Shown piece by piece: positions 20,305 to 50,259 of a DNA stretch of 64,000 nt. The stretch is from a virus. The notes below the pieces were generated by a model, which was not told where the DNA came from, made no database searches, and saw nothing but the letters and a program-made list of their open reading frames with translations. Location of the stretch: the IMG/VR virus record IMGVR_UViG_3300005721_000046, one strand, 5' to 3'. The position numbers and the translations under genes are program-made. The stretch's first letter is position 1, and the number at the start of each line of letters is the position of its first letter.

Positions 20305-21639
20305 TTATAACGATATACCAATAATGTTTGATTGACGCATCGGATGTCTGAAATCGACATAATAACCAAGAGCATCGGCTGCGTGCTCAACACCTTTGGC
20401 TTTGTCGACTTCGCGAGATCCTTCTTTATAAGTTGTTTGTTCAAGCGAGTTGATGATACCGGAACAGTTGGCGTCAACACGCAGTCTTATTTCGCCGTTG
20501 GCGGTAAACAACAATCGATTGACCGAGTTTACGCGATCTTGCACGGCCGGATGTTTGCGCTTGAAATAAATGTTTTTAAAACCGGCTTCCCGCAAAATAT
20601 CAAGCGACGTTTCGCCACGATCATGATTACGGTTATTGCCTGCCGGGTCAGGATAGATGGAAATCTGGTTGAGATAACGATAATAGCGCCGTGATAGCTC
20701 ATCGGCGGTTTCTTGAACGTTACTTCCAAAAAGTATCGCCTCGTCAACGACCCAGATTTCACCATCTGGCTGTTCTTGCAAAACGATAGACGACATCGGG
20801 TCGATGTTAAAGTCCATGCCAATGTAAATTGGTAATTTGGGATTAAACGGATAATCACCAACGTGTTTTGTTCTATCAAACGCGTAATAGACGCGACCGC
20901 TCATATTGACGAAAGAGGCTTCAAACTCTTGAGCAAAGGATTTTGGATCCATGTCATGCCGACGGGCTTCGATTTCAGAGCGCGGCACAAAAGGAGAAGA
21001 GCTTGTGGGAAATTGCCAGGACTTCCATTCGTTCTCGATAATCTTTCCGCGACTATCTGTAATATGGTCCGGCCGCTGACCTAGCTGATAAAGATCGTAA
21101 AGCCAGTTAAAACTCTTTGGCGTACCAATGAAAATAGCCCGGCCGCGCGTTGTGGCGAGTGTCGGCTGTATAACCTCTTGCCATGTTTCTTCTTTCATGT
21201 CCTGCGCTTCGTCGAGCACAACCAGATTAAGACCTACACCACGTAAAGTATCCGGTTTATCAGCGCCTTTCAAAACAATACGTGAGCCATTGACAAACTC
21301 CATCGACATTCGAGTTTCGTTTGTCTTTTTAATCCATTGATAAGGAATAATACGTTTAAGACTATCCCACATCAGATCACGAGCCATTTGATATGTTGGT
21401 GCAATATACCAAATAAGCTGATCCGATTTTTCCGCTGAAGCCACTATAATTTCGGTCGATGAAAGCTTGGTTTTACCCCAACGTCTACCCGCCACAACAA
21501 CGCGAAAGCGATGTTTGTCCTGATAAACCTTTTTCTGTAACGAATGAAGTTTGCAGGAAAAGTTATTTAGTGTCGACGACGTCATTCTTTTCCTCAAATG
21601 ATTTAATTTCCGCAACAAGGTCGTCAGTGGTTGCGTCAA
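20305..21639 (-). CDS. terL: terminase large subunit
   Basis: Walker A 'VVAGRRWGKTKL', Walker B 'LVVLDEAQD', C-terminal nuclease region. Start may be the internal Met near 21585. Confidence 0.85.
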   Translation of the reverse strand: MTQPLTTLLRKLNHLRKRMTSSTLNNFSCKLHSLQKKVYQDKHRFRVVVAGRRWGKTKLSSTEIIVASAEKSDQLIWYIAPTYQMARDLMWDSLKRIIPYQWIKKTNETRMSMEFVNGSRIVLKGADKPDTLRGVGLNLVVLDEAQDMKEETWQEVIQPTLATTRGRAIFIGTPKSFNWLYDLYQLGQRPDHITDSRGKIIENEWKSWQFPTSSSPFVPRSEIEARRHDMDPKSFAQEFEASFVNMSGRVYYAFDRTKHVGDYPFNPKLPIYIGMDFNIDPMSSIVLQEQPDGEIWVVDEAILFGSNVQETADELSRRYYRYLNQISIYPDPAGNNRNHDRGETSLDILREAGFKNIYFKRKHPAVQDRVNSVNRLLFTANGEIRLRVDANCSGIINSLEQTTYKEGSREVDKAKGVEHAADALGYYVDFRHPMRQSNIIGISL

Positions 21640-22234
21640 GTGGTAAAGCGCCGATCTCCTTGTGATGCTTCAACAGGTCTTCGTCAGTAAGGTCTTCGAC
21701 TGTGAGCTTGGGTAATCTGTTTTCATCGACGTGTTCGTCGGCTTTAAGCACGCGTAATGTGGCTTCTACGTTATCAATAACGATACGATTATATCTATTT
21801 AACGCCTTTAAATCCGGGTCGATTGCTGAAGGAGGTCTGGACGCCTTCAGATTTTCTATAACCGTGTGTCGAGCGAGCAATAATGATTGCTTTAGAACAT
21901 TTACGGCCGTTAAACGAGTTTCTTCAATCCACTGTGCACGTTTATCCGAATAACGTTCGACGGCCGCAATGGCTGCTTTATGACCGGCGGTTGCAACTTC
22001 TGCCGCGCGAGATCCTTTTACAATTCCGGCTGATTTGAATCTTTTCGACAAAGCTTGTCGTGAAATTCCAAGATCGTTGGCAATTTCGACAAGTGAGCGC
22101 TCACCTTTTTCGTAAATATCACAGGCGTTTTGAAACTCGGCTTCGGTAAGACGTTTACCGGTGACGGTCAATGTTTCTTCGTCAAAATTTGCTTCATTTT
22201 CATCAGAATTGGGTGTCATTTGCGTATAATGCAC
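21563..22234 (-). CDS. terS: terminase small subunit with N-terminal HTH
   Basis: HTH 'LVEIANDLGISRQALSKRF'. Immediately upstream of terL and overlapping it. Confidence 0.7.
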   Translation of the reverse strand: MHYTQMTPNSDENEANFDEETLTVTGKRLTEAEFQNACDIYEKGERSLVEIANDLGISRQALSKRFKSAGIVKGSRAAEVATAGHKAAIAAVERYSDKRAQWIEETRLTAVNVLKQSLLLARHTVIENLKASRPPSAIDPDLKALNRYNRIVIDNVEATLRVLKADEHVDENRLPKLTVEDLTDEDLLKHHKEIGALPLDATTDDLVAEIKSFEEKNDVVDTK

Positions 22235-28499: not shown

Positions 28500-28609
28500 T
28501 AAGGAAATAAGCATATAGGCATCTACTTTTTTCTCTAAATAGGGAATTTCCTTGCGGTATTTGCTTATTTGGTTATGTTTAAGGCATAGATTCGTATTAG
28601 GGAATTACA

Positions 28610-29263
28610 ATGCCTTTAATCATTGCCTGTTTGTCACAAAAAGGCGGAGTGGGTAAAAGCACTCTTGCCCGACTTATTGCCAGAACCTACGCAGTCGGTG
28701 GATGGTCGGTAAAAATTGCCGACTTTAACACGACACAGTTGAGTTCGTATAATTGGGCGCAAATTCGCAACGGTGAAGGCCATAAACCAAAAATCGATTC
28801 AGAGCCTGCCACCTCGCCTTCTCTTCTCAAACGCGAAAAATATGATCTGGTTGTCGCTGATGGTCGACCGGACTCCGATCAATCAAGTTTGGAAATCGCG
28901 CGAATAGCTGATCTGATTGTTATACCAACCGGTCTACCGCTAGACGACTTGATGCCACAGTTGCGCTTTGCCAATGAGCTCGTTGAAAAAGGCATAGATC
29001 CTCAAAAAATTCTTTGGGTGCTCAACAAGATCACCGATAGCATAACTGCGGTTGCAGAGGCGCGCGATTATATTCGTCAGGATCAGGATTATCGCATCGC
29101 CGCTCAAGAGCTCATGCACAAGATCAGTTACCAGAAAGCGCAAAACCATGGACTGGCTTTATCGGAAGTTGGTCGTAAGGTTGGTTCGTTGGAAGAAAAG
29201 GCTGATCTATTGGCGGCCGAAATCGTAGAGCTTGTTACCAAGTTGACGGAGGATAAAGAATGA
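28610..29263 (+). CDS. parA: ParA/MinD-family partition ATPase
   Basis: Deviant Walker A 'SQKGGVGKST'. 217 aa (small, type Ib size). Confidence 0.8.
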   Translation: MPLIIACLSQKGGVGKSTLARLIARTYAVGGWSVKIADFNTTQLSSYNWAQIRNGEGHKPKIDSEPATSPSLLKREKYDLVVADGRPDSDQSSLEIARIADLIVIPTGLPLDDLMPQLRFANELVEKGIDPQKILWVLNKITDSITAVAEARDYIRQDQDYRIAAQELMHKISYQKAQNHGLALSEVGRKVGSLEEKADLLAAEIVELVTKLTEDKE

Positions 29264-29514
29264 CTGAAGACGTAAAAACTAGAGCAGCAGTTCCGCCGCG
29301 TTCAAACAAAAGCTTTTTGCCACACGAAATCACAGCAAAGAAAGCAGGCGCAGCAAATAACATGCGCTCGGAAAAGACCGTTAAGACGTCTTTGCTGATT
29401 ACCGAAGAGCAACATCGCGATATGCGCTTGGCACGTGTCGAGTACAATCGGCCAGTCAATGACATTCTGGTTGAAGCGTTTTACCAGTGGCTCGATCGGC
29501 AGCGTAAGAAATAA
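29260..29514 (+). CDS. small ribbon-helix-helix-like partition partner (ParG-like)
   Basis: 84 aa overlapping the parA stop by 4 nt. Basic N-terminus and C-terminal helix pair typical of RHH centromere-binding proteins. Confidence 0.5.
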   Translation: MTEDVKTRAAVPPRSNKSFLPHEITAKKAGAANNMRSEKTVKTSLLITEEQHRDMRLARVEYNRPVNDILVEAFYQWLDRQRKK

Positions 29515-30069: not shown

Positions 30070-30180
30070 TTTAATCCATGCAATAGAGGGGAAATGCGCG
30101 CATATCATTTGCGCTTAAGGCGACCGAATTCTCAAAGTCGCTTTTGTACTTTTAATCCCAACTTTCGATAAAATCAATAA

Positions 30181-30268
30181 ATAAGGAAATAAGTGAATAG
30201 GGGAATAAGGAAATAAGCGAATAAGCGAAGAGGGGAATACGGAAATAAGGAAATAGGTAAATAGAGGA
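30181..30268 (+). repeat. array of about 9 GGAAATAAG / GGGAATAAG / CGAATAAG direct repeats
   Basis: Seen directly. Upstream of the HslV-like gene. Confidence 0.7.
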
Positions 30269-30470: not shown

Positions 30471-31115
30471 ATGTCAAAAGCAAAACTTAACAAAGAAAAC
30501 AACAAAGAAAACAACAAAAAAGAAACAATCTTAAAAGTTGCTAGAACAATTGAAAACGAATACGTAAAAGCAATTGATGAACGTCTTCAATTAGCACTAG
30601 CAAAAAATGTTTGCGCTGCAAACGAGAAGAAAATGCAAAACATGAAGCGCATGTTGTCAAGTGAACGCTTGTGTAATCTTTTAAGAGATGCAAAAGTTGA
30701 CGCGAATGCATTTTCTCGTGCAATTTACGCAAGCGAAAAAGTCGTAAAATTCGCAACACAAGCAATCGCATTTGACGCGACAAAATTAAACGAAAACACG
30801 CAAGCAATCTTCAAAACTGCAATCAATTGTGCAAAAAACAACGTCGAGTTTACAAAAGATGACGCGTGCGCTTCAATAAGCAAAGATTTAAACGTTGATG
30901 AAAATAAAAAAGCGTATGTTTTTCGTAGAAACATTATTCAACAAGTTTCAACAATTGCTGCACAAAGTCAAACAAGTCTTGACGCGTTGAAAACGCTTCA
31001 CATTATTAGCGACAATGCGCAAAAGAAAAATGTCTATGACGTAAATCTTGACAGCGAATTGACAAAAGCGCTTTGCAAAAACTTTAATATCGACTTGAAT
31101 GCAAAAGCTGCATGA
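30471..31115 (+). CDS. hypothetical protein, paralog of the 32831-33640 gene
   Basis: A-rich, low-GC ORF. 'INCAKNNVEFTKDDA' aligns with 'IKCSENNVSFTQG' in the paralog. Confidence 0.5.
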   Translation: MSKAKLNKENNKENNKKETILKVARTIENEYVKAIDERLQLALAKNVCAANEKKMQNMKRMLSSERLCNLLRDAKVDANAFSRAIYASEKVVKFATQAIAFDATKLNENTQAIFKTAINCAKNNVEFTKDDACASISKDLNVDENKKAYVFRRNIIQQVSTIAAQSQTSLDALKTLHIISDNAQKKNVYDVNLDSELTKALCKNFNIDLNAKAA

Positions 31116-31828
31116 TGAAAGTCAAACGAAAGCGAGTGAATTAACTCACTCGCTTTCAAATGCAAAACCCCTACGGGGCGTCCCACGATTTCATGCGGGG
31201 CGTCCCACGATTCGACACAAATACCAAACCATGGCTACCGGATTGATTATTTCCGGAATGGCGTTCGAAACGGTTTTCAAATGGTCGTCCGTCTTTTGTC
31301 TTGAAATAATTGGCAACCAGAATGGTGTCCATGCTGAAACAATCGGAAACCGGAATTGGCAACCAGAATGGCAACCAAGTTTAGGGCTGAATCAAAATGA
31401 CCGGCACTCTAATTCAGATCCAACGGGAAACCGCTTTTATAACCATCTCCAATGGCGAATTTTTGTCAGGCATTTTGGGCGCGTTTGACCAATTTTGGAC
31501 AGGTTTTCGGCAGGTTTTTCGCTGGTTTCGGGCGGTTTTCAGGTGGTGTTGGGCGAATTTTGGTGGTGGCGGTGTCGGTTTTGGCGGTGTTGGGCGGTTT
31601 TTTTCGGCAGGTTTTCAGGCGTTTTTCAGGCGTTTTTAGGTGAAATCCACGCATCCCACGGTTTAAATCTCGCCGTTCCTAGCCGACGTGTCCATTCCCC
31701 GGAATCCAAGCAAATCCAAAACCGCAAGCTATATCTCGGCTTCTAGGAATCTTGCCATTCCCCGAATTATCCATGGTTTTTAAGAAGCGTATTGAAAAGG
31801 GCTAGAGTTTAGCTCTTTTCAATGTGTT
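31116..31828. repeat. repeat-dense non-coding region. Contains a 16-bp direct repeat GGGGCGTCCCACGATT x2 (31175-31190, 31197-31212), TTGGCAACCAGAATGG x2.5 and about 15 G-rich units with T4-5 tracts phased at about 10-11 bp (31440-31640). Candidate origin / bent DNA
   Basis: Seen directly. ORFs called here on both strands are low-complexity artefacts. Confidence 0.6.
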
Positions 31829-32137: not shown

Positions 32138-32489
32138 TTTTTTTCTCTTTCTGTTATTTGATTATCATTAAAACAAAGACAAAAAGAGCGACGATAAGCG
32201 CGATCTCTTCAATTACGTCATAAAGAACAATGCGATTAAGTTCTTTTTCATAATCAAAATGCTGTCTCATTTGTTTCTCTTTCTGTTTGTTTTTTACATT
32301 TTGATAATAGCGTTTCAGAGCGTTGAAATCTCGAGGTGTCGAACGGTGAATACGCTTGCTGATTGGCCTGAATCGGCCGGAAAAAATTGGATAACGCTGT
32401 TAATCGGCCTCAAAAAAAAACGCAGGATTAGCGGCGTTTTGGCCTAAAGGTTCCGTAGATGTTATCGGTTGGCCGGAACGCCAAGGATT

Positions 32490-32658
32490 TTAAGGAAATA
32501 TGTACATAGGCAAATAGGCCGATAAAGAAATAGGTAAATAGGGAAATAAGCACATAAGGAAAGACACACGCCCGTGGGATCAGCGGCCAAGGTGCAAGCG
32601 GCCAAGGTGTTAGTGAGGATAAAGAAATAAGGAAATAAGGAAGTAGGTAAGTAGGTAC
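32490..32658 (+). repeat. GGAAATA-type repeat arrays (two clusters) plus GCGGCCAAGGTG x2
   Basis: Seen directly, including 'GGAAATATGTACATAGG', which resembles the palindromic operator half-site. Confidence 0.6.
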
Positions 32659-32689
32659 AAAAAAAAGACGCTGACCGAAGCCAGCGTCA
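32659..32689 (-). terminator. rho-independent terminator after gene 32831-33640
   Basis: Minus-strand RNA stem GACGCUG/CAGCGUC followed by U8-9. Confidence 0.7.
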
Positions 32690-32830
32690 GTTAAGAGCGA
32701 TCAGAATAGAGAAACACAAGAATCGCCCTTGAAAAGTTTTATACAATTGAAGAAAAATTCAAAAGCATAATAATAAATTAAAGCGTCTAGTGAGCACTAG
32801 ACGCCTATGAGATATCGTTGTTGAGTTGTT

Positions 32831-33640
32831 TCATTCATGAAACATTTTAATGAGTTGACGTGTTACAGGTGTATCTTTCAAAGCGATTACATTGTCGTCA
32901 CTCTTTTCATTATTGCTAGCAATTGCATCAAAAACCTCTAATGACGCGATCATTTGCGAACGCTGCGCTTGAGCCGTTGCTTTTGAAAGGTCGTGTCGCG
33001 TCAAATAACGCGCGTCACTGTGTGAGATGCGATATTCGCGCGATAATGACGCGAGTTGCAGACCCTGTGTAAAAGATACGTTATTTTCGCTACATTTGAT
33101 CATAGAACGTATAAAACAGTTGATTGTCTTATTGCTTGAATAAAAACCTTTCAACGCACGAGCGATCTCTGCAATCTTGAAAAACGCATAGACGTTGAAA
33201 CGGTTTTTAACGCTTTGCTGTTTATTTACAAAACTCTCATTAATGTGCAATGCGACGAAAACCTGACAAATGTCGTCACTCATGAACTGATTTTTTAGAA
33301 CCGTGAGATTATTGATCATTTTCATCGTGCAATTTTCTTTTGAACGCTCATAATCGATGCGAGCGTCAAAGGCGACAGCAAAATGCATGCGCATTTCTTC
33401 AATCTTTTTTACGTCTTCGATTGCAGTAAATATGTTATTGATATCACCTGATATGCTCTCACCGATATCAACTGACTTGATTGCGTTTGTATTGTTTAAC
33501 GAGACAGTTTTAACAACCGGTGCTTTCGCGATCTCTTCTGTTGTTTTGGTCTCTTCAATCTCTTTCGCATTAAGCGCGACGGCCTGCGCTGTAATATCGT
33601 CGAAAATCGCGGTGTTCGTCATGACGTCTGCAAGGTTCAT
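32831..33640 (-). CDS. hypothetical protein, paralog of 30471-31115
   Basis: See paralog. Followed by a terminator. Confidence 0.5.
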   Translation of the reverse strand: MNLADVMTNTAIFDDITAQAVALNAKEIEETKTTEEIAKAPVVKTVSLNNTNAIKSVDIGESISGDINNIFTAIEDVKKIEEMRMHFAVAFDARIDYERSKENCTMKMINNLTVLKNQFMSDDICQVFVALHINESFVNKQQSVKNRFNVYAFFKIAEIARALKGFYSSNKTINCFIRSMIKCSENNVSFTQGLQLASLSREYRISHSDARYLTRHDLSKATAQAQRSQMIASLEVFDAIASNNEKSDDNVIALKDTPVTRQLIKMFHE

Positions 33641-34745: not shown

Positions 34746-34831
34746 TTGTTTATTCGCTTTCTCAATCTCAATGTGTGAATTATTGATTGAATTGTAGCGA
34801 TCAATAATAACGCCTTCAAAAGGTATCGTAA

Positions 34832-34847
34832 GGAAATACATATTTCC
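34832..34847. promoter_or_regulatory. perfect 16-bp palindrome GGAAATACATATTTCC (operator-like) within a 45-bp conserved promoter block
   Basis: Seen directly. Identical palindrome and flanks at 35936-35951. Confidence 0.6.
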
Positions 34848-35022
34848 CTATAAGCCTATTTCTGCATATGCGTAGAAGAAGGTAGATAGACTACCCGGAA
34901 GCCATGGTTTTGAGTTTATGTTCTTGGTTTTTTTGATGCGTTATATCTTGACAAAACCTTCATCAAAGACACAAAAACAGAGAAAGCTTTTTTGCTTTCT
35001 CTGTTGTCATTCTTTTACTCTA

Positions 35023-35868
35023 TTACATATATCTAAAGCATTTAAAGCATTTCATCTGCTCAGTAGTCGCGTTACTCATAAGATTACTGAACTCGAAAAC
35101 GTTATAATGTTTTTCTTCAAACTCATTTTTATGTTCAAGTAGCGATAAAACGCAAACCTCATGATTAAGAGTGCGTTCGAGATATGCAAAGGCGCGATGT
35201 CTAATGTCGTTATTTTCTTCGTCATATGAACATTCGTAAAACGCTGCATTTTTCATAATCTCGATTGCGTGATCACGATCTTCATTTAAAAACTGTTTCG
35301 TCTCGTCATATTTTTTACTGATCTTGTAAAAATCGTCATGCGTCGAAAGCTCATGCTCTTTGCAATATTCTTCAGAACTTTTTAAAAGCTCGATAAACAC
35401 AGTCGCGCATGCACAAGGTTTTAGACATTTGAAGTTTTGTAGCTTTTCTTCTGTTGCGTTTTCAAAAAACTTGTTGAACTCTTCAAGCGTAATATATTCG
35501 CATGTCAATTCAGCATATTCTTCTTCAGGTTTGTCATGAAGAATTGAACGATAGATACATGAAGGTCTATCATCGTTTTCGTGATAGCAAAAAGAATAAT
35601 AAATAACTTCATGTGTTTCTTTATTAATTGATTGCGCTTCATAATAAGCAGCTTCAATCATGAAAGACAGATCTGTCTCGAACTGACCGTAAGAGTAACC
35701 GTACTCATCATTTTCGTCATCAGAGTGCGTAAAAACTTCATGATGTTGTTTTTGATCTTCTACGTAATGAACTAATTCATCATAGTCAGTTAAATTATGC
35801 TGCACGCAAAACTTTTGAGACTTTTTCAAGAGTGCTAAATATTTAGTATCAGACATTTGCTCATTCAC
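35023..35868 (-). CDS. hypothetical protein, paralog family B member 2 (two internal repeats)
   Basis: See member 1. The internal duplication is visible ('KKSQKFCVQHNLTDYDELV' and 'KSSEEYCKEHELSTHDDFY'). Confidence 0.55.
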   Translation of the reverse strand: MNEQMSDTKYLALLKKSQKFCVQHNLTDYDELVHYVEDQKQHHEVFTHSDDENDEYGYSYGQFETDLSFMIEAAYYEAQSINKETHEVIYYSFCYHENDDRPSCIYRSILHDKPEEEYAELTCEYITLEEFNKFFENATEEKLQNFKCLKPCACATVFIELLKSSEEYCKEHELSTHDDFYKISKKYDETKQFLNEDRDHAIEIMKNAAFYECSYDEENNDIRHRAFAYLERTLNHEVCVLSLLEHKNEFEEKHYNVFEFSNLMSNATTEQMKCFKCFRYM

Positions 35869-35935
35869 TTTCTTTGTTAATTAATTGAACAATAAAGTTA
35901 TAGCGACGAGCAAAAGCGCCTTCAAAAGGCTTCGT

Positions 35936-35951
35936 AAGGAAATACATATTT
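35936..35951. promoter_or_regulatory. second copy of palindrome GGAAATACATATTTCC, 68 nt upstream of paralog B member 2
   Basis: Seen directly. Confidence 0.6.
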
Positions 35952-36009
35952 CCCTAAAGGCGTATATCCTTATATATTTAGGCGAATGTCCGGGAAATCG
36001 CGTATTAAT

Positions 36010-36330
36010 CGCATCCTTGGTTTTCATCGGCTTAGGCTTCGCGTCATGGTTTCTTCATACCTTGGTTTATCTACCTTGGTTTTCACGCCTTGGTTCTTAA
36101 ACCACGGTTTCGCGTCACGGTTCTTAAACCATGGTTTTTAATACCGAGGCATCTTCACCGTGGTTTTGTGTACCTAGGAAAAAGTCCAGCCATTCCTAGG
36201 ATTTTAGGTGTGTGAGCGAAAACTCAGTCATTCCTCGGTTTTTGCACAAAGGCTTCTAGGTGTCTAAACGCGAACTCAGCCGTTCCTAGGCGTATAGACA
36301 AAAGCTCAGTCGTTCTTAGGTATAGTCCGG
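36010..36330. repeat. GGTT-rich repeats (CCTTGGTT x4, GGTTCTTAAACCAYGGTTT x2). Then four copies of core CTCAGYCRTTCYTMGG at variable spacing
   Basis: Seen directly. Confidence 0.6.
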
Positions 36331-36444
36331 ATTGGTTTATGGCTTCAGGTTTACGGATTATGCAGGAAAAGATAGGGCGAAGAGGGGAGGGGTGAATTTA
36401 CCTATTGAAATCCAAAGAGCACGGCGGCGCGGAATTTTTCATCG

Positions 36445-36560
36445 TCCGCTTACGTCCGTTCTTATTCGCTCTTATTCATTCTTATTCGTTCTTACTCGCT
36501 TACATTCGTTCTTGGTCACTCTTGTTGGTTCTCAGTTCGCTCTTATTCGTTCTTATATGC
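36445..36560. repeat. about 11 tandem copies of a 10-bp unit YTCTTATTCG (reverse complement CGAATAAGAR)
   Basis: Seen directly. The unit is the reverse complement of the GAATAAG motif found elsewhere. Confidence 0.75.
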
Positions 36561-36840
36561 TCATACACGCTTCTAATGATCTGAAGGCGTTTTGACGCTA
36601 TCTGTCTTTTTTTACGTCTTGCTAGAATATGTTTTATGCTTAGCGTTCCCTATCATGCGTAAAAACGCTCAGTTGACCCTCTAAGCGCGTTTTATATCTT
36701 TGACGTATGAATTGACGTCTTGTTTGACGGTCGCACTCAGTGAGCTTCTATAGCGTTTTTTAATATGATGTTATTTGTTATAGACCTGTCTTAGTTTTTT
36801 ATGTTTCAGCTTGTTAGCGTTTTAAAAAAAATAAATTTTG

Positions 36841-37025
36841 GCCTAAAACGTAAACTTTTGTCAACTTATGTCGTTCTTGGCCTGAATAATCCGATATCTT
36901 AAGTTGACAGATTGTGGCCGATCGAAGCCGGAATTTGTGTTTTAGGCTGTGTTTTTACATGATAAGTTGACAGATTATGGTCAAAATGGCCTAAACGTAA
37001 ACATTTTATGGCCTAAACGTAAACG
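36841..37025. repeat. GGCCTAAACGTAAAC x3 and TAAGTTGACAGATTRTGG x2 direct repeats
   Basis: Seen directly. Confidence 0.6.
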
Positions 37026-37709
37026 TTACGCTATTTCATTTTCGACACAAAAATTCTTAAGTCTGTTGAGCTTGGCAATGGTTGCGCGAAGATGAGTTTT
37101 TTGCCAAAAGCCTGATGTTTCCATTCGCGAAGGATCTTTTGTGAAAGGTGTATCCTTTCGCTCAATCTTATTAGCCAAATATAGCCATTCAATCGCCTCT
37201 TTAAGAAAGAAGTTATGCCGTTTATGTAGAAAGGACATTTGATAACGTTTTTCTGCCTTTGCTAATTCAGGCTTTAATCGACACAAATGTTTTATAACGT
37301 TTGGTGAATCCAAATGCCGCATAACGTTTCGAACGAGCAAACTTATAAACATTATAAATATTGCGTTTTTAAGCGCCGCTATTGTTAGCAATTCATACTC
37401 GTCGAAGTGAAAGGTTTCCGGTATGTTAAAACCTTCAATCACGCTTTCAATGTTGGCCGATGGTTTGTAATATAATCGATTAAGAATGTCTAAAATGTCA
37501 TGAACAAGATCGTATGTGTTTGGATGTTCCGGATCGTTTAACGATTCCTTAGGAAATTGTTTAGCGAATTGAATGAACCAGAACAGCTTTTCGTTGAGAG
37601 TTTTCCCATGCATATTCTTCATATCATCCAACGAAATTATATCAGCTAGGTCAATCATGACGCTCTTCCGTGTCGTTTTTGTTGTCTTCGTGATTGATAT
37701 ATTTCTCAA
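37026..37709 (-). CDS. hypothetical protein
   Basis: 227 aa ORF. Confidence 0.45.
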   Translation of the reverse strand: MRNISITKTTKTTRKSVMIDLADIISLDDMKNMHGKTLNEKLFWFIQFAKQFPKESLNDPEHPNTYDLVHDILDILNRLYYKPSANIESVIEGFNIPETFHFDEYELLTIAALKNAIFIMFISLLVRNVMRHLDSPNVIKHLCRLKPELAKAEKRYQMSFLHKRHNFFLKEAIEWLYLANKIERKDTPFTKDPSRMETSGFWQKTHLRATIAKLNRLKNFCVENEIA

Positions 37710-38836: not shown

Positions 38837-39418
38837 TTAAGCCGCCATTACTCTTGGATATGAAAATCGAACGTAAGTGCTAAGAACATATTTTGCCGCG
38901 TTCGAGATGGGTTTCATGTCGCTATAACGATACATCTGCATGTAGGGAAAAATAACGACTGTGCCGGTCTTTGGTTTGATTCCTGCGTCTAAATGGTCGA
39001 AGACAGTTTCTCCGCCGTTTTCGACGTCATTCAGATAGGCAAGCATTACGAATAAACGACTTGCAGTGGCGTTGCTTGTAGGACCAACAGGATGCGAAAC
39101 TCGATTGGATCCATTTGACGAATAACGTTCAATTCGGAACGACGTCAATGTCGTTGAAAAGCTCACACGTTCCGGTAGTTTTACGTTAAAATGGGTTTCG
39201 CGTGCCTGAAGAAGTGTGTTGTAAATACGCGATAGATAAGTTTTAAAGGCCGCATAATCGTGAGGATTTATTTGTTCGAAATAACCATCTGCGTCTGATT
39301 GTTCCGACTGACAAGGCTTTTTGATTTTATCTGCTAAGGTGATTAGCTTTTCACAGATATTGGTATCTAATACACCTTCATAAACGCCAATTAAATTCAA
39401 GAGAGTAGGAGTTGACAT
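38837..39418 (-). CDS. 2OG-Fe(II) oxygenase / prolyl-4-hydroxylase-like fold protein (atypical metal motif)
   Basis: 'RLFVMLAYLNDVENGGETVF...KPKTGTVVIFP' matches the P4H-like core pattern. The first His motif reads 'SHPVG' rather than HxD. Confidence 0.4.
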   Translation of the reverse strand: MSTPTLLNLIGVYEGVLDTNICEKLITLADKIKKPCQSEQSDADGYFEQINPHDYAAFKTYLSRIYNTLLQARETHFNVKLPERVSFSTTLTSFRIERYSSNGSNRVSHPVGPTSNATASRLFVMLAYLNDVENGGETVFDHLDAGIKPKTGTVVIFPYMQMYRYSDMKPISNAAKYVLSTYVRFSYPRVMAA

Positions 39419-39451
39419 AATCTATTTCTCCGAAATAGCTGCTTTCAGTTA

Positions 39452-39505
39452 GTATTATAGCTTGAGATAGCGTGGAGAAATGTCGGTATAAAAAGGCTTT
39501 AACAC
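39452..39505 (-). promoter_or_regulatory. repeated promoter-like element copy 1 (TATAAT - N11 - CGYGGAGAAATGTCGGTAT ... GGCTTTAAC)
   Basis: Minus-strand TATAAT at 39454-39459. Upstream of the 38837-39418 gene. Confidence 0.55.
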
Positions 39506-39524
39506 TTGCCTTTAGTTATGATAT

Positions 39525-39956
39525 TCATTCCGTAGGATTTAACGTTATTGTCTGTTTAGTTTCTTCGCAAAATCCGATGAAAGTCGGCATGACGTTGTAA
39601 TCTTTTTGCCATTTATCAGCGATTGCCTTAACTGCGTCATCAAAGGCCTTTTCGGCCTCACGTGAACAAATAAAAACATCTTCGTCGCCATAAAAATCGG
39701 ATATGTCCCAATTCACTTCGCCAATAAGATAATCCATATAATCAGCAAGCCTGTGATAGTAGACTTTACCAAAAATTAAATAGATTTTTGTTGGTTTTTC
39801 AGCGCAATTGGCGATTTTCGTCTTTGCATAATTCACCGCATCTTCTTGCGTTTTGAAAGCGCCTTTGTCCGTCTCGAACCGTTTTCCGTCCAGGCTCAAA
39901 AACCAACCGTCTTCGTTCAATACTCTGTTCAATGGTCTTTTACCTTTTGTTATCAT
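39525..39956 (-). CDS. hypothetical protein
   Basis: 143 aa ORF. Confidence 0.4.
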   Translation of the reverse strand: MITKGKRPLNRVLNEDGWFLSLDGKRFETDKGAFKTQEDAVNYAKTKIANCAEKPTKIYLIFGKVYYHRLADYMDYLIGEVNWDISDFYGDEDVFICSREAEKAFDDAVKAIADKWQKDYNVMPTFIGFCEETKQTITLNPTE

Positions 39957-40531
39957 TTTGTTGCTTTCTCTATGGCTTCTTTAATTTCGCGATTTAGACT
40001 GAAAAGCCCTCGAATACTTGAAAAGTTTCGTATTGTTAGCTGGGCAAGATAAATTACGGTAACAAAGCAAAACAATCGAACCAAATGAACCAGATCGATC
40101 GTTATGGCGCTTTGTTCGGTGTCAACGTTGAAAATGATTATTTGGTAGTTTGTTTCGGCTAAAGAGATTGCTATTCCGGCTAGCACACACCTTACAAAAA
40201 AAGCATTTTCTATGTAGTCGCGTTCTTTCTCAAAAAAGGATAAGACTGCTTGTCTCCAATCTGGGTTTAAGTCGGCTTTCAATATCGAAAACCTATGGCT
40301 GAACCACAGATTTAAACAAATGGCTATGCCGCTCGTTACCGTCAAAAATACGAACATATAAATGATCGTACGACCGCTAATGTCCGGCATTCCGAAAATA
40401 AAGTCGAGAACAAAGTAAAGTGCAATACTAACTAATGTAAGAAAACTATATCTATATAATTCCGGATAATCTTCTATGAAAAAGATCATTCTATTTATAA
40501 TATTGTTTATTAAACTTTTTAATGTTGTCAT
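39953..40531 (-). CDS. membrane protein (4-5 TM)
   Basis: Hydrophobic segments. Confidence 0.45.
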   Translation of the reverse strand: MTTLKSLINNIINRMIFFIEDYPELYRYSFLTLVSIALYFVLDFIFGMPDISGRTIIYMFVFLTVTSGIAICLNLWFSHRFSILKADLNPDWRQAVLSFFEKERDYIENAFFVRCVLAGIAISLAETNYQIIIFNVDTEQSAITIDLVHLVRLFCFVTVIYLAQLTIRNFSSIRGLFSLNREIKEAIEKATK

Positions 40532-41886: not shown

Positions 41887-42600
41887 TTAAGACCAATTTT
41901 GATCTTCTTCTATTTGCTTTTTTCTTATTTCGACAGCGCCCTTTAATCGTTCAATGAAGCGTTGCTTTGCCGTCATGATGTCATTACGCGGAAGAATAAT
42001 ATCTGAACCATCAAACTTGGCGAGTGTTTCTGTATAACGAATGGCGATATTCTTATAAGCGATAATACCGGAACCGGGTCGATAATCCTCTATGATCGAA
42101 AAGATATAAAGGAATGAACGCCGCGCTATTTTACGTTGTGCTATCGAAATAGCTTGGTTTATATCTAAAAATGGGCCGCCGCCAATGCCGTCGACACTTA
42201 GACATGGCTTATTAGACGTATCTCGCTGATGTTCTTCAATGTACCAAAAATAGCTTTCTGGCTTTTGTTGCCATTGTTTTTCTTTCTCTTTCGTTTTCTC
42301 GAACGCTTGTTTTAAAGCATAACAATCGCTTTGATTTAAATGATAACCCACGCAGATTTTTTTAACCACATCCGTAGGTAACGTTGTAGTTCCGGCTTCG
42401 AGCCAAGCCAGCAGTGATGCGTGTACGCCAGTCACTCTTTCCATGTCTTCAATACCATGCTTATGGGCCTTTCGTATCGTACGAATTGCAAGTCCAAAAT
42501 CTGTCGTCTCGCTTGGTATCTCGAATAAGCTGTCGCTGTTCTCGACGTTTAAGTCCCAACTCCAGTACCAATTAGTGCTCTTTTTATCTTTAATTGTCAT
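41887..42600 (-). CDS. XRE-family HTH regulator with novel C-terminal domain (paralog 1)
   Basis: HTH 'AIRTIRKAHKHGIEDMERVTGVHASLLAWLEAG'. Along-length similarity to 42726-43421. Confidence 0.55.
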   Translation of the reverse strand: MTIKDKKSTNWYWSWDLNVENSDSLFEIPSETTDFGLAIRTIRKAHKHGIEDMERVTGVHASLLAWLEAGTTTLPTDVVKKICVGYHLNQSDCYALKQAFEKTKEKEKQWQQKPESYFWYIEEHQRDTSNKPCLSVDGIGGGPFLDINQAISIAQRKIARRSFLYIFSIIEDYRPGSGIIAYKNIAIRYTETLAKFDGSDIILPRNDIMTAKQRFIERLKGAVEIRKKQIEEDQNWS

Positions 42601-42667: not shown

Positions 42668-42722
42668 TATTATAGCTGCAGAAAACGTGGAGAAGTGTCG
42701 GTATGAAAAGGCTTTAAACGCG
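42668..42722 (-). promoter_or_regulatory. repeated promoter-like element copy 4
   Basis: Minus-strand TATAAT at 42669-42674. Confidence 0.55.
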
Positions 42723-42725
42723 TTC

Positions 42726-43421
42726 TCAGGAATAAAACTGGTCTTGTTCTTGTTGTTTTTGCCTTATCTCAACAGCGTTTTTTAAACGTTCGATGAAGCG
42801 TTCCTTTGCCGTCATCATCTCTTTACGCTGAATAATACCTGAGGCGCTAGACTTGGCGAATGTTTCTACAAAACGAATGACGATATTCTTATAAGCAATA
42901 ATACCGGAGCCAGGTCGATAATCCTCTACAACCGAAAAAACATAAACGGTTGACGGCTGTACCACTTTAAATTGTGCTACCGAAATAGCTTGGTCAATAT
43001 CTAAAAATGGACCGCCGCCAATACCATTGTTGTTTTGCGAGGAGGGCTGATGTTCTTCAATGTACCAAAAATAACTTTCTGGCTTTTGTTCCCATTGTTC
43101 TTCTTTGATTTTTGTTTTTCGGAAAGCTTGCCTCAAGGCATAATCATCTTCCTGGCTTAATTGATAACCCACGCAGATTTTCTCATCGACTCCATAAGGC
43201 AATCTTACAATTCCGCTTTCAAGGCAACTCAGTAGGCGATAGTCGACATCGGTCAATCTTCCCATGTCGACGACGGTATGATTATGAGCCTTTCGTATCG
43301 TTCGAATTGCATGACCGAAATTCGTTATTTCACTTAGAATTTCAAATAGGCTGTCATTAGTCTTAAAATCCGAGTCCCAGTTCCAGTGCCAATTAGTGCT
43401 CTTTTTGTCCTTAATTGTCAT
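42726..43421 (-). CDS. XRE-family HTH regulator with novel C-terminal domain (paralog 2)
   Basis: Start set at 'MTIKDKKSTNW', which is conserved with paralog 1. The longest ORF extends to 43448. Confidence 0.55.
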   Translation of the reverse strand: MTIKDKKSTNWHWNWDSDFKTNDSLFEILSEITNFGHAIRTIRKAHNHTVVDMGRLTDVDYRLLSCLESGIVRLPYGVDEKICVGYQLSQEDDYALRQAFRKTKIKEEQWEQKPESYFWYIEEHQPSSQNNNGIGGGPFLDIDQAISVAQFKVVQPSTVYVFSVVEDYRPGSGIIAYKNIVIRFVETFAKSSASGIIQRKEMMTAKERFIERLKNAVEIRQKQQEQDQFYS

Positions 43422-43499
43422 GTTATCGTCGACTCCTAACATCTTCACAAAGTGTCTTTTCTCCCGTTATGGGTTGATAGACGTGTGATTATTGTTGCA

Positions 43500-46045: not shown

Positions 46046-46085
46046 CCTTATTTCCTTATTTCCTTATTTCTTTATTTCCCTATTT
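46046..46085 (+). repeat. 5 tandem copies of CCTTATTT (= AAATAAGG), abutting the start of gene 45350-46036
   Basis: Seen directly. Confidence 0.7.
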
Positions 46086-46707: not shown

Positions 46708-46787
46708 AAATCGCTTGCCGAAGAAAAATATTCATGGTAGAAAACAAATGCGACAGAATTCTCTTTCTGTTGTTTGTTTTACAAAAA

Positions 46788-47078
46788 TTAACCTTCCTTA
46801 ACTGGAAGGTTTTTTTTTGACTTCGTATTATATCGACCTTCAAGTTCAAATGCCGCTATTTCTGCAATCTGAATCCATGTGCAAGACGGCTTTTTCTCGT
46901 CAACAACGACCAGGAAATGTCGAGGATCGTCAAATACTGCCACTTTTCCTCGAATAGGCGCGGAATTGCCTTTCAGTGTAACGGCTACCGAGCAACCGAC
47001 AAGCTTCTTTTTGGTTGCAAATATATTAATGAACATCGGTGTCATTGTTTGTTTCCCTTTGTATACGCCATTTTTCAA
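46788..47078 (-). CDS. small protein with tentative Sm/Hfq-like fold
   Basis: 'VAVTLKGNSAPIRGKVAVFDDPRHFLVVVDE...IQIAEIAAFEL' resembles the Sm1/Sm2 pattern of Hfq. Weak call. Confidence 0.3.
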   Translation of the reverse strand: MKNGVYKGKQTMTPMFINIFATKKKLVGCSVAVTLKGNSAPIRGKVAVFDDPRHFLVVVDEKKPSCTWIQIAEIAAFELEGRYNTKSKKNLPVKEG

Positions 47079-47280
47079 ATGAAAGGTTCTCGTCTGCGTC
47101 GACTGATGATATGGATTTTTCGATTGCCGCGATCAGAGCGGATCTATCCAGTGTTGAATATTGATCGAAATTTTTGATTGGATTGGGTTGATCAGGAAAG
47201 CTTAAAGCGAACCGGCGACGCATTTCCGCAAGAAAACAAACTGCGGCGAATTCTAAGCGTAGGCGTGAAAGATTCTGCAT
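47026..47280 (-). CDS. hypothetical small protein
   Basis: 84 aa ORF. Confidence 0.3.
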   Translation of the reverse strand: MQNLSRLRLEFAAVCFLAEMRRRFALSFPDQPNPIKNFDQYSTLDRSALIAAIEKSISSVDADENLSFEKWRIQRETNNDTDVH

Positions 47281-47936
47281 AATTAATTAGTCACAATTTT
47301 ATTAGATGGCTAAAAAGCGCGTTGTTACAAGTGGTTAAGTTTTTATAGTTGAATTCAAAGTTGAAAATTGCGGGGTATTTCTTGTTCATTAAAAAAAATT
47401 TTATGGACTCTAACAAAATATTCGATCAGAAAGCGAGAACAAAACGGGAACAGCGGAAAGGGGCGGTTTATGATGCAGTACTCGGATACAAGGATTACGC
47501 GCGCGGCAACTATGCTACGCCGCGATTTAAAATTGACTGTTGGGCGAATATTTAAAGAAAATGGCATTCTTTTTAATGAAGAGGTGTTTTTGCAAAATAC
47601 GTCAATTGATTGGGAACAACTCGTTCAAGAAGCTTTTTGCTATGGAACGGATATAATTCCGCCTCCTGTACCTGTTAAAGAGACATTAGAAATCAATGTT
47701 CAAGTTGAGGTTTTAAACGTATAAAAGTTGTTTCGTGGTTAAAATGAGATTTATAGGCCAACGAATTGAGCAAAAAAGAAAGAAAGTTATTCGTTGACCT
47801 ATAGTTAATTATGAAATATGAAATAGAAAAATGAGTGTTTTGCGTCTGAATTATGTCTTTACGTCATATATTCTCCTTTTGTTTTTTCTTATAATATATT
47901 TATAGCAAAAATGAACTTGGAATGCTGTAGGTAAAT

Positions 47937-48983
47937 CTATATCGCCCAGACCCGATAACGTGATCGGCCAGTAATTTCTCTCAATTGCAACGTCTTTAAA
48001 ATCTTCAATACACCGGCCGGAGAAATATTCAGCGCGGCTGCCGCATTTGTGGTTGTAACGACCGGCGTTGCAATAGCATAATCAATAAAAGCCTTGGTTT
48101 TGGATCCCGCACGTATGTTTTCGGTGCGTTCTTGCAAGCGTTCATAACGGACTTTGATTTTATGAGCGTTACGAATGGCTTGCTCGCTTGAAAGCGCATA
48201 AGCGTCGATATAGGCTTTCAAACGCTTCAAACGATTATGATTTTTGCGGGTATTTAACGGTGTTTGTCTTAAACCCGTTGTTATAGAAGGCAGATAATCA
48301 AGCGATAAATCCACCCGAAGGGCAGTGTTTGCGTATTCAAAGCCAAGCCATGGTTTGTTCGGTATTGGATCGAGGTTAATCCAGGCGTCCAGAAGGATGG
48401 CCGAACGCAAGATTGGCGGTTCGTGCTGCGTTGATTTTATAACCTCTTGCCATTTTTCCCATATTTCATCCTGATTTTTTGGCTTCAGCAATTGCTTAAG
48501 TCGGTTAGGCTTGATTTCAAGTGTCTCCGGATTTTCAAGGATTTTGTTTGTACGCTCTAAGATGGCGTCTATATCTTCCAGCTCTCTTTCAAAATCATCA
48601 ATAGCGGTTTTATCACGTGAAGTTTCGTGAGTTGGCTGTTGTGTCAATTGGAATGAATCTGCTTCAAAGAGCCACTCGCGCTTCTTGGTCTCGATCAAAC
48701 GTCTGGCAGCCAGAATATCCATGGCATCGGCAATATCCTGATTAGAAATTGCAACGTCGGTGTTATATGCGTGGAGCACCAAGTCGTTCAATTCGATCAA
48801 GCCGCCTTGAAGATAGATTGAGGCAACGGCTGAAAAGAAATGTTCGCGACTGTTTAGTCCGTTTTTGAACGTGGATGCCTCGATGAGACCGTTGTAACGC
48901 ATGATTAGCTCGGTCGCTTTTATCAGCGGCTCAAGGAGTTCAGAACGGTCAACCGTAGACGATCTATAATCAATTGATTTCAT
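47937..48983 (-). CDS. hypothetical protein with C-terminal HTH, divergent from integrase
   Basis: 348 aa. C-terminal 'AAALNISPAGVLKILKTLQ' HTH-like. This is a common architecture next to tyrosine recombinases. Confidence 0.45.
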   Translation of the reverse strand: MKSIDYRSSTVDRSELLEPLIKATELIMRYNGLIEASTFKNGLNSREHFFSAVASIYLQGGLIELNDLVLHAYNTDVAISNQDIADAMDILAARRLIETKKREWLFEADSFQLTQQPTHETSRDKTAIDDFERELEDIDAILERTNKILENPETLEIKPNRLKQLLKPKNQDEIWEKWQEVIKSTQHEPPILRSAILLDAWINLDPIPNKPWLGFEYANTALRVDLSLDYLPSITTGLRQTPLNTRKNHNRLKRLKAYIDAYALSSEQAIRNAHKIKVRYERLQERTENIRAGSKTKAFIDYAIATPVVTTTNAAAALNISPAGVLKILKTLQLREITGRSRYRVWAI

Positions 48984-49001
48984 TTAAAAAAATATTTCAC
49001 A

Positions 49002-49028
49002 TTAAACTGAAAGCGGCGTTCAGTTTAA
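49002..49028. promoter_or_regulatory. 10-bp perfect inverted repeat TTAAACTGAA-N7-TTCAGTTTAA in the divergent int promoter region
   Basis: Seen directly. Confidence 0.45.
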
Positions 49029-49141
49029 TCACTACCGATAATAACGCAAGCAGTTTCTAACTAATGATAACTATCCCTTATCGTTAGTGTTGAATAAAAC
49101 CGCAAATCATCGTATGGAGAGATAACTTCAACGAGGATGTT

Positions 49142-50259
49142 ATGAGCGACTTAAATCCGCTTTATTCGGTATTGCCGACAAGACAGGTCGAAAACCTCGG
49201 CCATGAACTCAATAGCGAAGATGTTGCGACATTAAGCTACCTTGTTCAGCAAGGCATGGGCGCAAACACACTGCGCGCTTTGGCCGCCGATCTTGCTTAT
49301 ATCGAATGCTGGTGCAAGGCTGCCACCGGCCATGATCTCGATTGGCCGGCACCTGAGACGCTCATACTCAAATTTATCGCTCATCACCTTTATGATGTCG
49401 CAAGGCACGAAGTTGATAAAAGCCATGGCATGCCGGAAGAGGTTGCCTCGGCCATGATTAAAGCAGGCGTTCTTAAGCATGTCGGACCGCATGCACCTTC
49501 GACTGTCAAGCGCAGATTGTCGTCATGGGCGACATTGACACGATGGAAGGGTCTTGAAGGCGCATTTCAGTCGCCAAAGATAAAGAATGCTATTCGGCTG
49601 GCCGTTCGTGCAAGTGAGCGGCCGCGCCAACGTAAAAGCAAAAAGGCGATAACCATTGACGTATTAATCAAGCTTATTGCGACCTGCGGTCAAAGTCTGG
49701 TTGATATGCGTGACAAAGCAATTCTATTGGTAGCCTTCGCATCAGGTGGTCGACGGCGTTCCGAAATCGCAAGTCTCAGGATGAGCCAATTAACGAGAGA
49801 AGCCGACGTTTTAATCGACGCGCGGGATGCGGGGAAGGGGACTATGCCATGCGCTCGAATTAGGCTTGGGCGCACGAAAACCACGACAAATGATGAGGGC
49901 GATTATGCACTGATTATGGGCAGACCCGTCGTTGCTTTGTATCAATGGATTGAGGCTGCGCACATTGATAAAGGCGCAATTTTCAGGTCGATTGATAGAT
50001 GGGGGAATATCAACAATGTGTCGCTTACAGGCCAGTCGATTAATAATATGATTAAATCGCGCGTCAAAAAAGCCGGATTGGATCCTAACGACTTTTCAGC
50101 TCATGCTTTACGAGCAGGTTATCTCACTGAGGCCGCGCGAAAGGGATATCGCTTCCCGAAGCCATGCAGCAATCAGGCCATAAATCAATACAGCAGGCGG
50201 CACGTTATTATAATGACAGTGAGCGCAGATCAGGCTTAGCGGCGCGACTTATCGATTGA
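49142..50259 (+). pseudogene. int: tyrosine recombinase / phage integrase with +/-1 frameshift near the 3' end
   Basis: The main frame ends 'KGYRFPKPCSNQAINQYSRRHVIIMTVSADQA*' at 50239. The adjacent frame from about 50160 encodes the canonical catalytic tail 'AMQQSGHKSIQQAARYYNDSERRSGLAARLID*' (stop 50257-50259). A single-base indel near 'CCCGAAGCC' (50153-50161) would restore it. Confidence 0.75.

Follow-up and report, generated by a model that had tools for sequence, protein, structure and literature searches.

What is a 1.15-kb stretch packed with short repeats, and lacking any conserved open reading frame (ORF), doing in the genome of a tailed phage? The question is raised by positions 35869-37025 of a 64,000-nucleotide stretch (the window) of the virus record IMGVR_UViG_3300005721_000046. 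The gene content of the window is that of a tailed phage: TerL, a tape measure protein and, beside TerL, a 527-aa ORF that matches no family and is presumed to encode the portal. ParA with an 84-aa partner, two ParB_N proteins, a helicase, an integrase and a ribonucleotide reductase are also encoded. The TerL protein shares 73% identity with that of Rhizobium phages V1VFA-S and B1VFA and 66% with that of RHEph10, ParA is 66% identical to that of the Sinorhizobium plasmid-prophage pLM21S1 and 68% identical to that of a Bartonella sp. HY406 plasmid, and the gene order agrees with that of the ~115-122-kb phage-plasmids RHEph10, pLM21S1 and B1VFA. Judged by these similarities, the element is a relative of that group of Hyphomicrobiales phage-plasmids. 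For the island itself we favour, tentatively and at somewhat less than an even chance, the reading that it is the boundary of a terminal repeat together with the region in which concatemers are processed, an analogue of Repeat Region 3 of phage T5, a function that we infer from the relatives of the element.

The island and 46708-47936, a stretch of similar length that contains a 118-aa ORF, are the two longest ORF-poor parts of the window. No conserved ORF is present in 35869-37025, as the preliminary description of this DNA had proposed, and all of the repeats that it listed were found. At least five repeat families occupy the island, and the two that were compared with shuffled sequence lie far above chance. 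In order to assess conservation, homologues of the 277-aa acidic protein encoded to the left of the island were obtained by exact look-ups, yielding three further Bartonella-type lineages (L005, L008 and L011/L012) in which this protein is 91%, 77% and 40% identical, respectively. Alignment of the island is possible over its full length in all four lineages, among which it is better conserved than the adjoining genes. A 100-bp block at 36605-36704 is 97% identical to that of L011, the most distant lineage, whereas the adjacent gene for a 210-aa protein shows 47-75% identity. Invariant columns across the four lineages reach 80% in 36368..36446 and 84% in 36561..36835, compared to 31-51% in the repeat arrays. 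The lowest value belongs to a CCNNGG array, from which whole units have been gained or lost between lineages, the CAGYCRTTCYTMGG/CAGCC units number 4 here and 5-6 in the other Bartonella lineages, and a 10-bp array is kept in all of them with 10-bp indels and unit drift. Binding-site arrays arranged around fixed unique sequences are the pattern expected of a cis-acting DNA element. The possibility that the repeats might be private to this sequence, raised at the outset, is not what we saw; island and repeat architecture are both conserved, arguing for a functional cis-acting element composed of protein-binding-type arrays, and to that extent the general idea of the preliminary description is upheld.

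A gene-poor island of 1.1-1.5 kb is also found at the same position in 10 out of 10 distant relatives from Rhizobium, Sinorhizobium, Pararhizobium, Shinella and Methylobacterium, the gaps compared being those of B1VFA, RHph_X66, V1VFA-S, pLM21S1, RHEph10, RHph_Y2_11, Pararhizobium p5, a Shinella plasmid and two Methylobacterium plasmids. In each case the island lies a few kb past parA and beside a conserved gene for a protein of ~230-325 aa (the B1VFA_058 family), and it is the largest gene-free gap in the flanking stretches examined, which for B1VFA and V1VFA-S means the whole genome. The homologue of B1VFA_058 in the window is a 269-aa gene at 32831-33640 (27% identity), and in the Bartonella lineages 2-3 paralogous acidic genes are inserted between it and the island. 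An nhmmer profile built from the Bartonella island found no alignable homology in the relatives, and the relatives' islands can be aligned to one another only in part. Therefore, the correspondence across clades rests on position, on the order of parts and on a few short motifs. The order of parts is broadly kept in all ten, with motifs that are clade-specific. ORFs have been annotated or called inside some of these islands, including RHEph10 gp104 (L016, 15551-16114), X66 QWY82961 (L022, 2957-3232), Y2_11 EVC19_009 (L026, 7408-7926) and two in contig L003 (9173-9465 and 9664-9833); sister genomes lack any counterpart of these ORFs, which are probably spurious. Two further features of these records deserve mention. 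The frame in which RHEph10 gp103 is annotated is apparently wrong when compared with the B1VFA_058 family. The circular record of the Shinella zoogloeoides plasmid (NZ_CP132310.1; L019/L024) opens at the start codon of a B1VFA_058-family gene, with the island at the end of the record, which suggests rotation of the assembly to a start gene.

The evidence that bears most directly on function comes from two of these relatives. In the published announcement of the two genomes, both phages are given fixed termini, with direct terminal repeats of 3,605 bp in B1VFA, determined by PhageTerm, and of 3,939 bp in V1VFA-S, and positions are stated for neither (PMC12509600). We assembled both genomes from their records, mapped one onto the other and scanned every start in B1VFA for a 3,605-bp interval whose homologous interval in V1VFA-S measures 3,939 +/- 25 bp, on the assumption that the boundaries are homologous. 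Two regions of B1VFA, and no others, satisfy both lengths. The better fit has starts at 39,113-39,808 and ends at 42,718-43,413, with a V1VFA-S length of 3,940, 3,949 or 3,950 bp, and all of its starts fall inside the B1VFA island (38,843-40,333). Both ends are non-coding only when the start lies at 39,557-39,808 and the far end at 43,162-43,413, after B1VFA_061, and this 250-bp range of starts includes the block formed by a G-rich sequence and CCGCGGCGCGG, together with the adjoining hairpin region. The other qualifying region gives 3,922-3,932 bp and falls among the head-tail genes, past the gene for the major capsid protein on one side and that for the tape measure on the other, where it would cut genes. 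Hence a boundary inside the island of the two relatives is compatible with their published repeat lengths. If the same boundary is present in the Bartonella-type element, synteny would have the repeat run leftwards from ~36.4 kb to ~30.1-30.5 kb, roughly 6 kb, longer than that of B1VFA because of the inserted paralogous genes. The stretch 32271-32830 had been considered as the other edge of the repeat and was replaced, as synteny with B1VFA_061 (30471-31115 in the window) puts that edge near 30.1-30.5 kb. In its own right, 32271-32830 is a second non-coding stretch, located downstream of the 269-aa gene, that shares motifs with the island (TTTTGGCCTAAA, GGCCTGAAT and CCAAGG x3) and carries 8-bp AATAGG arrays. 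The record starts of RHph_X66, Y2_11, B1VFA and V1VFA-S were also considered as termini and rejected, as they look arbitrary.

Several considerations weigh against this placement. The position of the B1VFA repeat is derived from two published lengths under the assumption of homologous boundaries, and the V1VFA-S length was obtained from coverage and not from PhageTerm. We estimate that, of two such candidate blocks, one would overlap the island by chance in ~5-6% of cases; the result is therefore suggestive, and supportive of a boundary in the island without amounting to proof. The V1VFA-S repeat could alternatively be placed at the end of its record (L029, 114,293-118,231), in an interval of 3,939 bp with intergenic edges that contains the nadM-nadV-prohibitin genes, although the homologous interval in B1VFA would not be 3,605 bp. 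The two inferred boundaries have no motif in common at the exact offset, with matches at background level only. Contigs of the Bartonella type are all collapsed metagenome assemblies, in which a putative terminal repeat is placed by synteny, and the island is ~15 kb from the terminase genes, a small terminase candidate being encoded at 21563-22234. Finally, no resemblance to T5 Repeat Region 3 is evident in the sequence when compared by eye, without alignment, and the paired DnaA boxes are absent from the island.

The comparison to T5 is one of architecture. Repeat Region 3 of T5 (AY587007, 9194-10409) covers the boundary of the left terminal repeat and has been proposed as the signal at which injection stops; the boundary lies within 1.2 kb of untranslated DNA that holds several families of direct repeats as well as palindromes and inverted repeats. 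One repeat of 15 nt occurs nine times there, with copies to either side of the boundary, and the account given by Davison describes the region as more conserved than the flanking ORFs (bioRxiv 10.1101/866236). The island described here is likewise gene-free and longer than 1 kb, has several families of direct repeats as well as inverted repeats and palindromes, is more conserved than the small ORFs at its flanks, and would straddle the inner edge of a long direct terminal repeat if the boundary in its B1VFA homologue is placed correctly. Both phages are siphoviruses of ~100-120 kb with homologous TerL proteins, the match being full-length but distant (23% identity, E 1e-23). Unlike T5, the relatives have a terminal repeat of 3.6-3.9 kb instead of 10 kb, the phage is temperate or plasmid-forming with DnaE-type replication, and its family is not known to inject DNA in two steps. 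A second parallel is offered by concatemer junctions of the T7 type, where concatemers are processed with the help of short tandem repeats and sequences able to form hairpins that lie beside a fixed terminal-repeat boundary. Elements of these kinds would likewise adjoin the boundary proposed here; in T7, however, 7-bp repeats lie beside a 160-bp terminal repeat in an unrelated lineage, and the island is much larger with many more repeat families.

Under the terminal-repeat reading, the element would be a long-genome siphovirus with the capacity to live as a plasmid too, and the island its conserved cis-acting terminus region. During lytic growth, concatemers would be packaged into linear molecules whose ends are fixed and carry a direct terminal repeat several kb long. 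The island would contain one edge of this repeat, close to the 10-bp array and the conserved G-rich/CGGCGGCGCGG block, flanked by the CCNNGG, CAGCCATTCCTAGG, 10-bp and lineage-specific GGCC/GTTGACA arrays as phased binding sites. On these arrays the terminase, along with accessory or host proteins, would be assembled into a nucleoprotein complex that sets the site of concatemer cutting and of duplication of the repeat. That portion of the island which falls inside the repeat, and which carries the leader of the first genes there (the 277-, 315- and 269-aa genes), would also be the first or the last DNA to enter the cell. In this scheme, the presence of the boundary in the Bartonella-type element, the proteins that bind and the mechanism of cutting are inferred.

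The anatomy of the island, followed from left to right, allows the other explanations to be weighed. Both flanking genes are leftward, encoding the 277-aa acidic protein (35023-35856, minus strand) and the 210-aa protein (37026-37658). At its left end, 35869..36014 (minus strand) is the leader and promoter of the 277-aa gene, with a ribosome-binding site, a terminator-like hairpin (35918-35930), the palindrome GGAAATAcatATTTCC (35939-35954) and the A+T-rich patch TATATCCTTATATATTTAGG. A 40-nt block that contains the palindrome and hairpin (35917-35956) recurs with 95% identity at 34811-34850, upstream of the gene for a 315-aa acidic protein that is a paralogue of the 277-aa protein (30% identity). 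Consequently, although repeats span most of what had been described as one island, its leftmost ~130 nt (35869-~36000) are a duplicated gene leader and lie outside the repeat element proper. Three paralogues of the 277-/315-aa acidic genes are carried by other lineages. Contig ends near the island (L003, L004, L006, L007 and L010) were considered as physical DNA ends and rejected because the 40-nt duplicated leader breaks k-mer assemblies; the affected metagenome contigs stop ~70 nt before the start of the 277-aa gene, on its upstream side. The relatives' islands have an A+T-rich patch flanked by inverted repeats at this end.

Next to the leader is the CCNNGG(TT) array (36015..36180, plus strand), composed of 10-11 units with a period of 13-15 bp at 36015-36178. 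Unit variants are CCTTGG (four times), CCACGG, CACGG, CCATGG, CCGAGG, CCGTGG and CCTAGG. The doubled CCNNGGTT unit, CCNNGGTTN6CCNNGGTT, has four occurrences in the island, where 0.10 would be expected for the window as a whole. A CCNNGG array with a period of 10-14 bp is visible in the island of every relative, preceding the A+T-rich patch in Shinella. The array is followed by four copies of CAGYCRTTCYTMGG within 36181..36325 (plus strand), located at 36187, 36225, 36277 and 36307 with spacings of 38, 52 and 30 bp; the first begins CCAG instead of CTCAG. All four copies in the 64 kb are in the island, against 0.22 expected. This family shares the CCNNGG core with the preceding array, and so the four families originally described as unrelated are real, but they are at least five in number and two of them are connected. 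In the relatives the corresponding part is marked by the motif CCRTTCCTRR, which was not found in Shinella. The CCGTTCCTAAATTCC core is single-copy and 100% identical between B1VFA and Methylobacterium pAMS5a, two elements in which the motif is identical over 21 nt.

When read on the minus strand, the CAGYCRTTCYTMGG copies are CCTAGGAAYGRCTGAG, units that could, speculatively, be tandem promoters of a phage-sigma type. This bears on an explanation that we regard as quite unlikely, in which the island is a transcription-control or non-coding RNA locus within a long leftward operon: a transcript would run from TTGACA-containing repeats through the conserved block and the arrays and end before the next genes, and the CAGCCATTCCTAGG units would act as tandem phage-sigma promoters for the 277-aa cluster. 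The duplicated gene leader in the left 130 nt fits such a role, a sigma-70-family factor is encoded by relatives, and by our own reading the coding-strand unit GGAAYGRCTGAG-N12-TAnAC resembles the -35/-10 layout of extracytoplasmic function (ECF)-type promoters. Furthermore, B1VFA (L017, 17600-17935) and the homologous parts of X66, V1VFA-S and pLM21S1 contain a segment of ~330 nt with several hairpins and a rho-independent terminator oriented with the flanking genes, and a few compensatory changes (189/201 CG to AU and 215/229 AU to GC), such that this segment may encode a non-coding RNA. However, the hairpin and terminator segment has no clear counterpart in the Bartonella island, segments of which, including 36368..36446 and 36561..36835, fold no better than shuffled sequence (z from -1.5 to +0.75). 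A search of Rfam gave no match to the island, even when the limit was relaxed from the gathering score to E <= 1. One substitution in L005, GCGT..ACGC to ACAC within the block that is conserved best, breaks a candidate hairpin without compensation. Sigma-70 promoter-like sites are present at the level of chance (6 versus 5.3), and short tandem arrays with drifting copy number are atypical of RNA genes.

The center of the island is occupied by a unique conserved block (36368..36446), in which the G-rich GAAGAGGGGAGGGG is followed by CACGGCGGCGCGG immediately before the 10-bp array; we also refer to it as the G-rich/CGGCGGCGCGG or G-rich/CGGCGCGG block. Relatives have a G-rich block and a G+C-rich motif of GCGGCG type at this place. 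GCGGCGCGG is found in the Bartonella and B1VFA/pLM21S1 clades, and the latter clade carries the motif pair GGGGTGGGAGG...CCGCGGCGCGG at the position matching 36368..36446, with the variants GGCGCGGCGCCGCC in the RHEph10 clade and GCCGCGGCCGCGG/GGCGCCGCGCGGCC in the Methylobacterium plasmids. The 10-bp tandem array itself (36447..36566, plus strand) consists of ~11-12 units in register with the consensus CGYTCTTATT, and a Tandem Repeats Finder (TRF) run confirmed the period (36457-36556, period 10, 9.9 copies, 67% matches). Short-period arrays of CTCT type (CTCTCTAGG and CTCTATGGG) stand at its position in Rhizobium, Sinorhizobium, Shinella and Methylobacterium. The only sizeable ORFs of the island cross this array, and two overlapping frames are open there in every relative. 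Counterparts of the ORF at 36332-36595 have low-complexity products, and their starts, ends and frames vary because the relatives differ by 10-bp indels. Given that two frames are open at once and that frame and length change between relatives, the ORFs are repeat-driven, as had been suspected for 36332-36595 from this sequence by itself.

The 10-bp array was also the basis on which the island had been assigned to plasmid partition. In that explanation it is a partition centromere or incompatibility locus, where the 10-bp array and other repeats are bound by the 84-aa ParG-like protein or by the two ParB-N-domain proteins and serve as a handle for ParA. The element does encode ParA (28610-29263), the 84-aa partner and two ParB_N proteins, every relative that bears an island also has ParA, and GAATAAG, present in 5 of the ~11 units of the array, resembles the AATAAGG of the parA operator. 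Centromeres can be dispersed in a phage-plasmid, as they are in N15, and tandem arrays of very short units (7-10 bp) recall type Ib centromeres such as TP228 parH and the omega heptad arrays of pSM19035, which are bound by small ribbon-helix-helix proteins. The island, however, is 6.3 kb and ~9 genes away from the operon of parA and the 84-aa partner (28610-29514). The derivation of the 10-bp unit as the reverse complement of GAATAAG holds for this lineage and for no other, as the units of the other three Bartonella lineages are without the AATAAG core and keep GYTCTTRY, the core of the family. Most of the island is unlike the par operator motifs; this holds for the CCNNGG and CAGCC families as well as for the unique block of 275 bp that is conserved best.

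The operator-type unit forms arrays of its own elsewhere in the window. AATAAGG/AAATAGG units in the operator region upstream of parA (28500-28580) are conserved in all four lineages, and 8-bp RAATARGN tandem arrays are located at 30179-30268 (12 units), 32491-32655 (~13 units) and 46046-46085 (5 units, in reverse), that is, at 30.2, 32.5 and 46.05 kb, which sets the island apart from type Ib centromeres. On sequence grounds, these arrays and the region upstream of parA are likely to be operator or centromere sites of the 84-aa ParG-like protein (29260-29514), and the 8-bp arrays are better centromere candidates than the island. The closest ParA is that of the 23-kb HY406 plasmid, whose partner protein is 54% identical, and the par operon of that plasmid is flanked by similar AAATAAGTAGG/AAATAGG motifs. 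The assignment to partition or incompatibility is unsupported by these data, and we consider it very improbable.

To the right of the array is the most conserved unique block (36561..36835), with A/T runs at 36815-36835 and four copies of TTGACG (36592, 36700, 36712 and 36724, all within 36592-36729), a family in addition to those first listed. Its counterpart in the relatives is a GACG-rich unique block. The right end (36836..37025, plus strand) is made up of lineage-specific iteron-like repeats that adjoin the stop codon of the 210-aa gene and include GGCC-containing elements. Here, GGCCTAAA(A)CGTAAAC is present three times (36840, 36988 and 37010, the last two 22 bp apart) and AAGTTGACA also three times; its two direct copies (36901 and 36964) had been described previously, and an inverted copy at 36859 had been missed. 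In the relatives, this end carries clade-specific iteron-like repeats, each beside a different small gene: ATGTTGACA in 5-7 copies in the RHEph10 clade (RHEph10, Y2_11 and Pararhizobium), GTAAAGGTC in 4-5 copies in B1VFA and pLM21S1, and 11-bp tandem arrays of GGGACATCC or GGGGACA in Methylobacterium.

Clade-specific iteron-like repeats beside a variable gene keep alive a further explanation, which we judge to be unlikely: that the island is a lytic or second replication origin. Its right-end repeats would then be the binding sites of an initiator, the product of the variable gene next to them (here the one for 210 aa), while melting would take place at the A/T runs or at the palindromic A+T-rich patch, and accessory or host factors would bind the other arrays. 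The layout is origin-like, with GGCCTAAACGTAAAC in three copies, two of them 22 bp apart, A/T-rich stretches that include the runs at 36815-36835, and hairpins in relatives. The right-hand repeats change together with the neighboring small gene across clades, as is typical of iteron/initiator co-evolution, the right-hand arrays of Methylobacterium are 11-bp tandem repeats of 9-10 units, and in high-GC relatives a conspicuous 40-bp A+T-rich patch is flanked by inverted repeats. In addition, if pLM21S1 ends near repC, the island would be mid-genome, like the T5 origins. Iteron loci of other phages and phage-plasmids (P1 oriR/incA, lambda ori and P4 ori/crr) share helically phased clusters of direct repeats, A/T-rich segments and lineage-specific repeats beside a variable gene, but there the repeats are 17-22 bp, whereas those of the island are mostly 6-16 bp, short and heterogeneous, and no recognizable initiator is adjacent to it. 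Neither flanking protein has a match in Pfam or PHROGs, the 210-aa protein also has none in PDB sequence searches, the B1VFA_058 family proteins have none in all three, and the AlphaFold models of the 269-aa and 210-aa proteins are too poor for fold searches (pLDDT 34 and 54, respectively).

Other features also argue against an origin. The iteron-like repeats are downstream of the 3' end of the neighboring gene, DnaA boxes are not enriched (TTWTNCACA occurs once in the island and three times in the window, against 8 expected), and there is no change in GC skew at the island, although gene orientation is constant across it. The replication genes of the family (DnaE, primase/helicase and RepC) are tens of kb away, with RepC in the relatives ~60 kb from the island. 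Plasmid replication in these relatives has been assigned to RepC (PMC4447125), which is a further difference from iteron-type loci.

Identical or related contigs of the element itself were found solely in metagenome assemblies, and contig scans of isolate genomes and metagenomes yielded no isolate genome and no further lineage. Therefore, the assignment to a Bartonella host rests on ParA similarity, GC content and sample origin; two interpretable contig names presumably denote honey-bee-gut samples, by our reading of the names and not from any tool. Near-identity DNA searches of the island region in phage and plasmid collections and a distant search in phages gave no match, nor did scans of viral contigs with both flanking proteins and with the core 21-mer. 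No RepC or DnaE homologue is present within the 64-kb window, and Rhizobium-clade relatives have RepC. These relatives have no integrase annotated in the regions examined, and pLM21S1 is reported to be without one (PMC4447125). The Bartonella-type lineage may integrate instead of, or besides, replicating as a plasmid. The island was considered as the phage attachment site attP and rejected, given that the integrase is 12 kb away and that Rhizobium-clade carriers of the island lack an annotated integrase in the regions examined. Elsewhere in the window, the tyrosine integrase adjoins a DUF1612/HTH_13 protein (47937-50239). Adjacent paralogous genes at 41887-42600 and 42726-43448 are ~75% identical in DNA, the first matching HTH_31 and the second without Pfam match, and their copy number and sequence vary between lineages. 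Tandem 11/21-bp repeats resembling TTTTCGGGCGG (TRF scores 40-53) are located at 31500-31640, at the end of a 129-aa ORF and in the gap that follows.

A broader view of the terminal-repeat reading, which we think unlikely but worth stating, is that the island represents an undescribed, family-wide terminus organizer of alphaproteobacterial phage-plasmids, with an ancient order of parts, motifs that co-evolve with lineage-specific proteins, and fixed-end packaging coupled to control of DNA entry or of early expression. Staged injection of the T5 kind could be among its roles, as could switching from the linear DNA of the virion to the circular plasmid prophage or back.

Phage-plasmids of the RHEph10/pLM21S1 type occur in several genera of the Rhizobium group and, by this analysis, in the honey-bee gut, and their cis-acting sites have not been mapped so far. 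The passages on these phage-plasmids in the papers on the family make no mention of the island, and three GenBank records annotate ORFs within the islands of relatives. As the largest gene-free gap in the stretches of relatives examined, and one that is better conserved than the adjoining genes wherever relatives can be aligned, the island is an obvious site at which to study DNA cutting, packaging, injection and perhaps recircularization. If the boundary proves to be real, annotation of the family would gain a defined start of the genome, and vectors for Rhizobium and Bartonella a candidate site for packaging; there would also be a second, evolutionarily distant system in which to approach the still unexplained repeats at the terminal-repeat boundary of T5.

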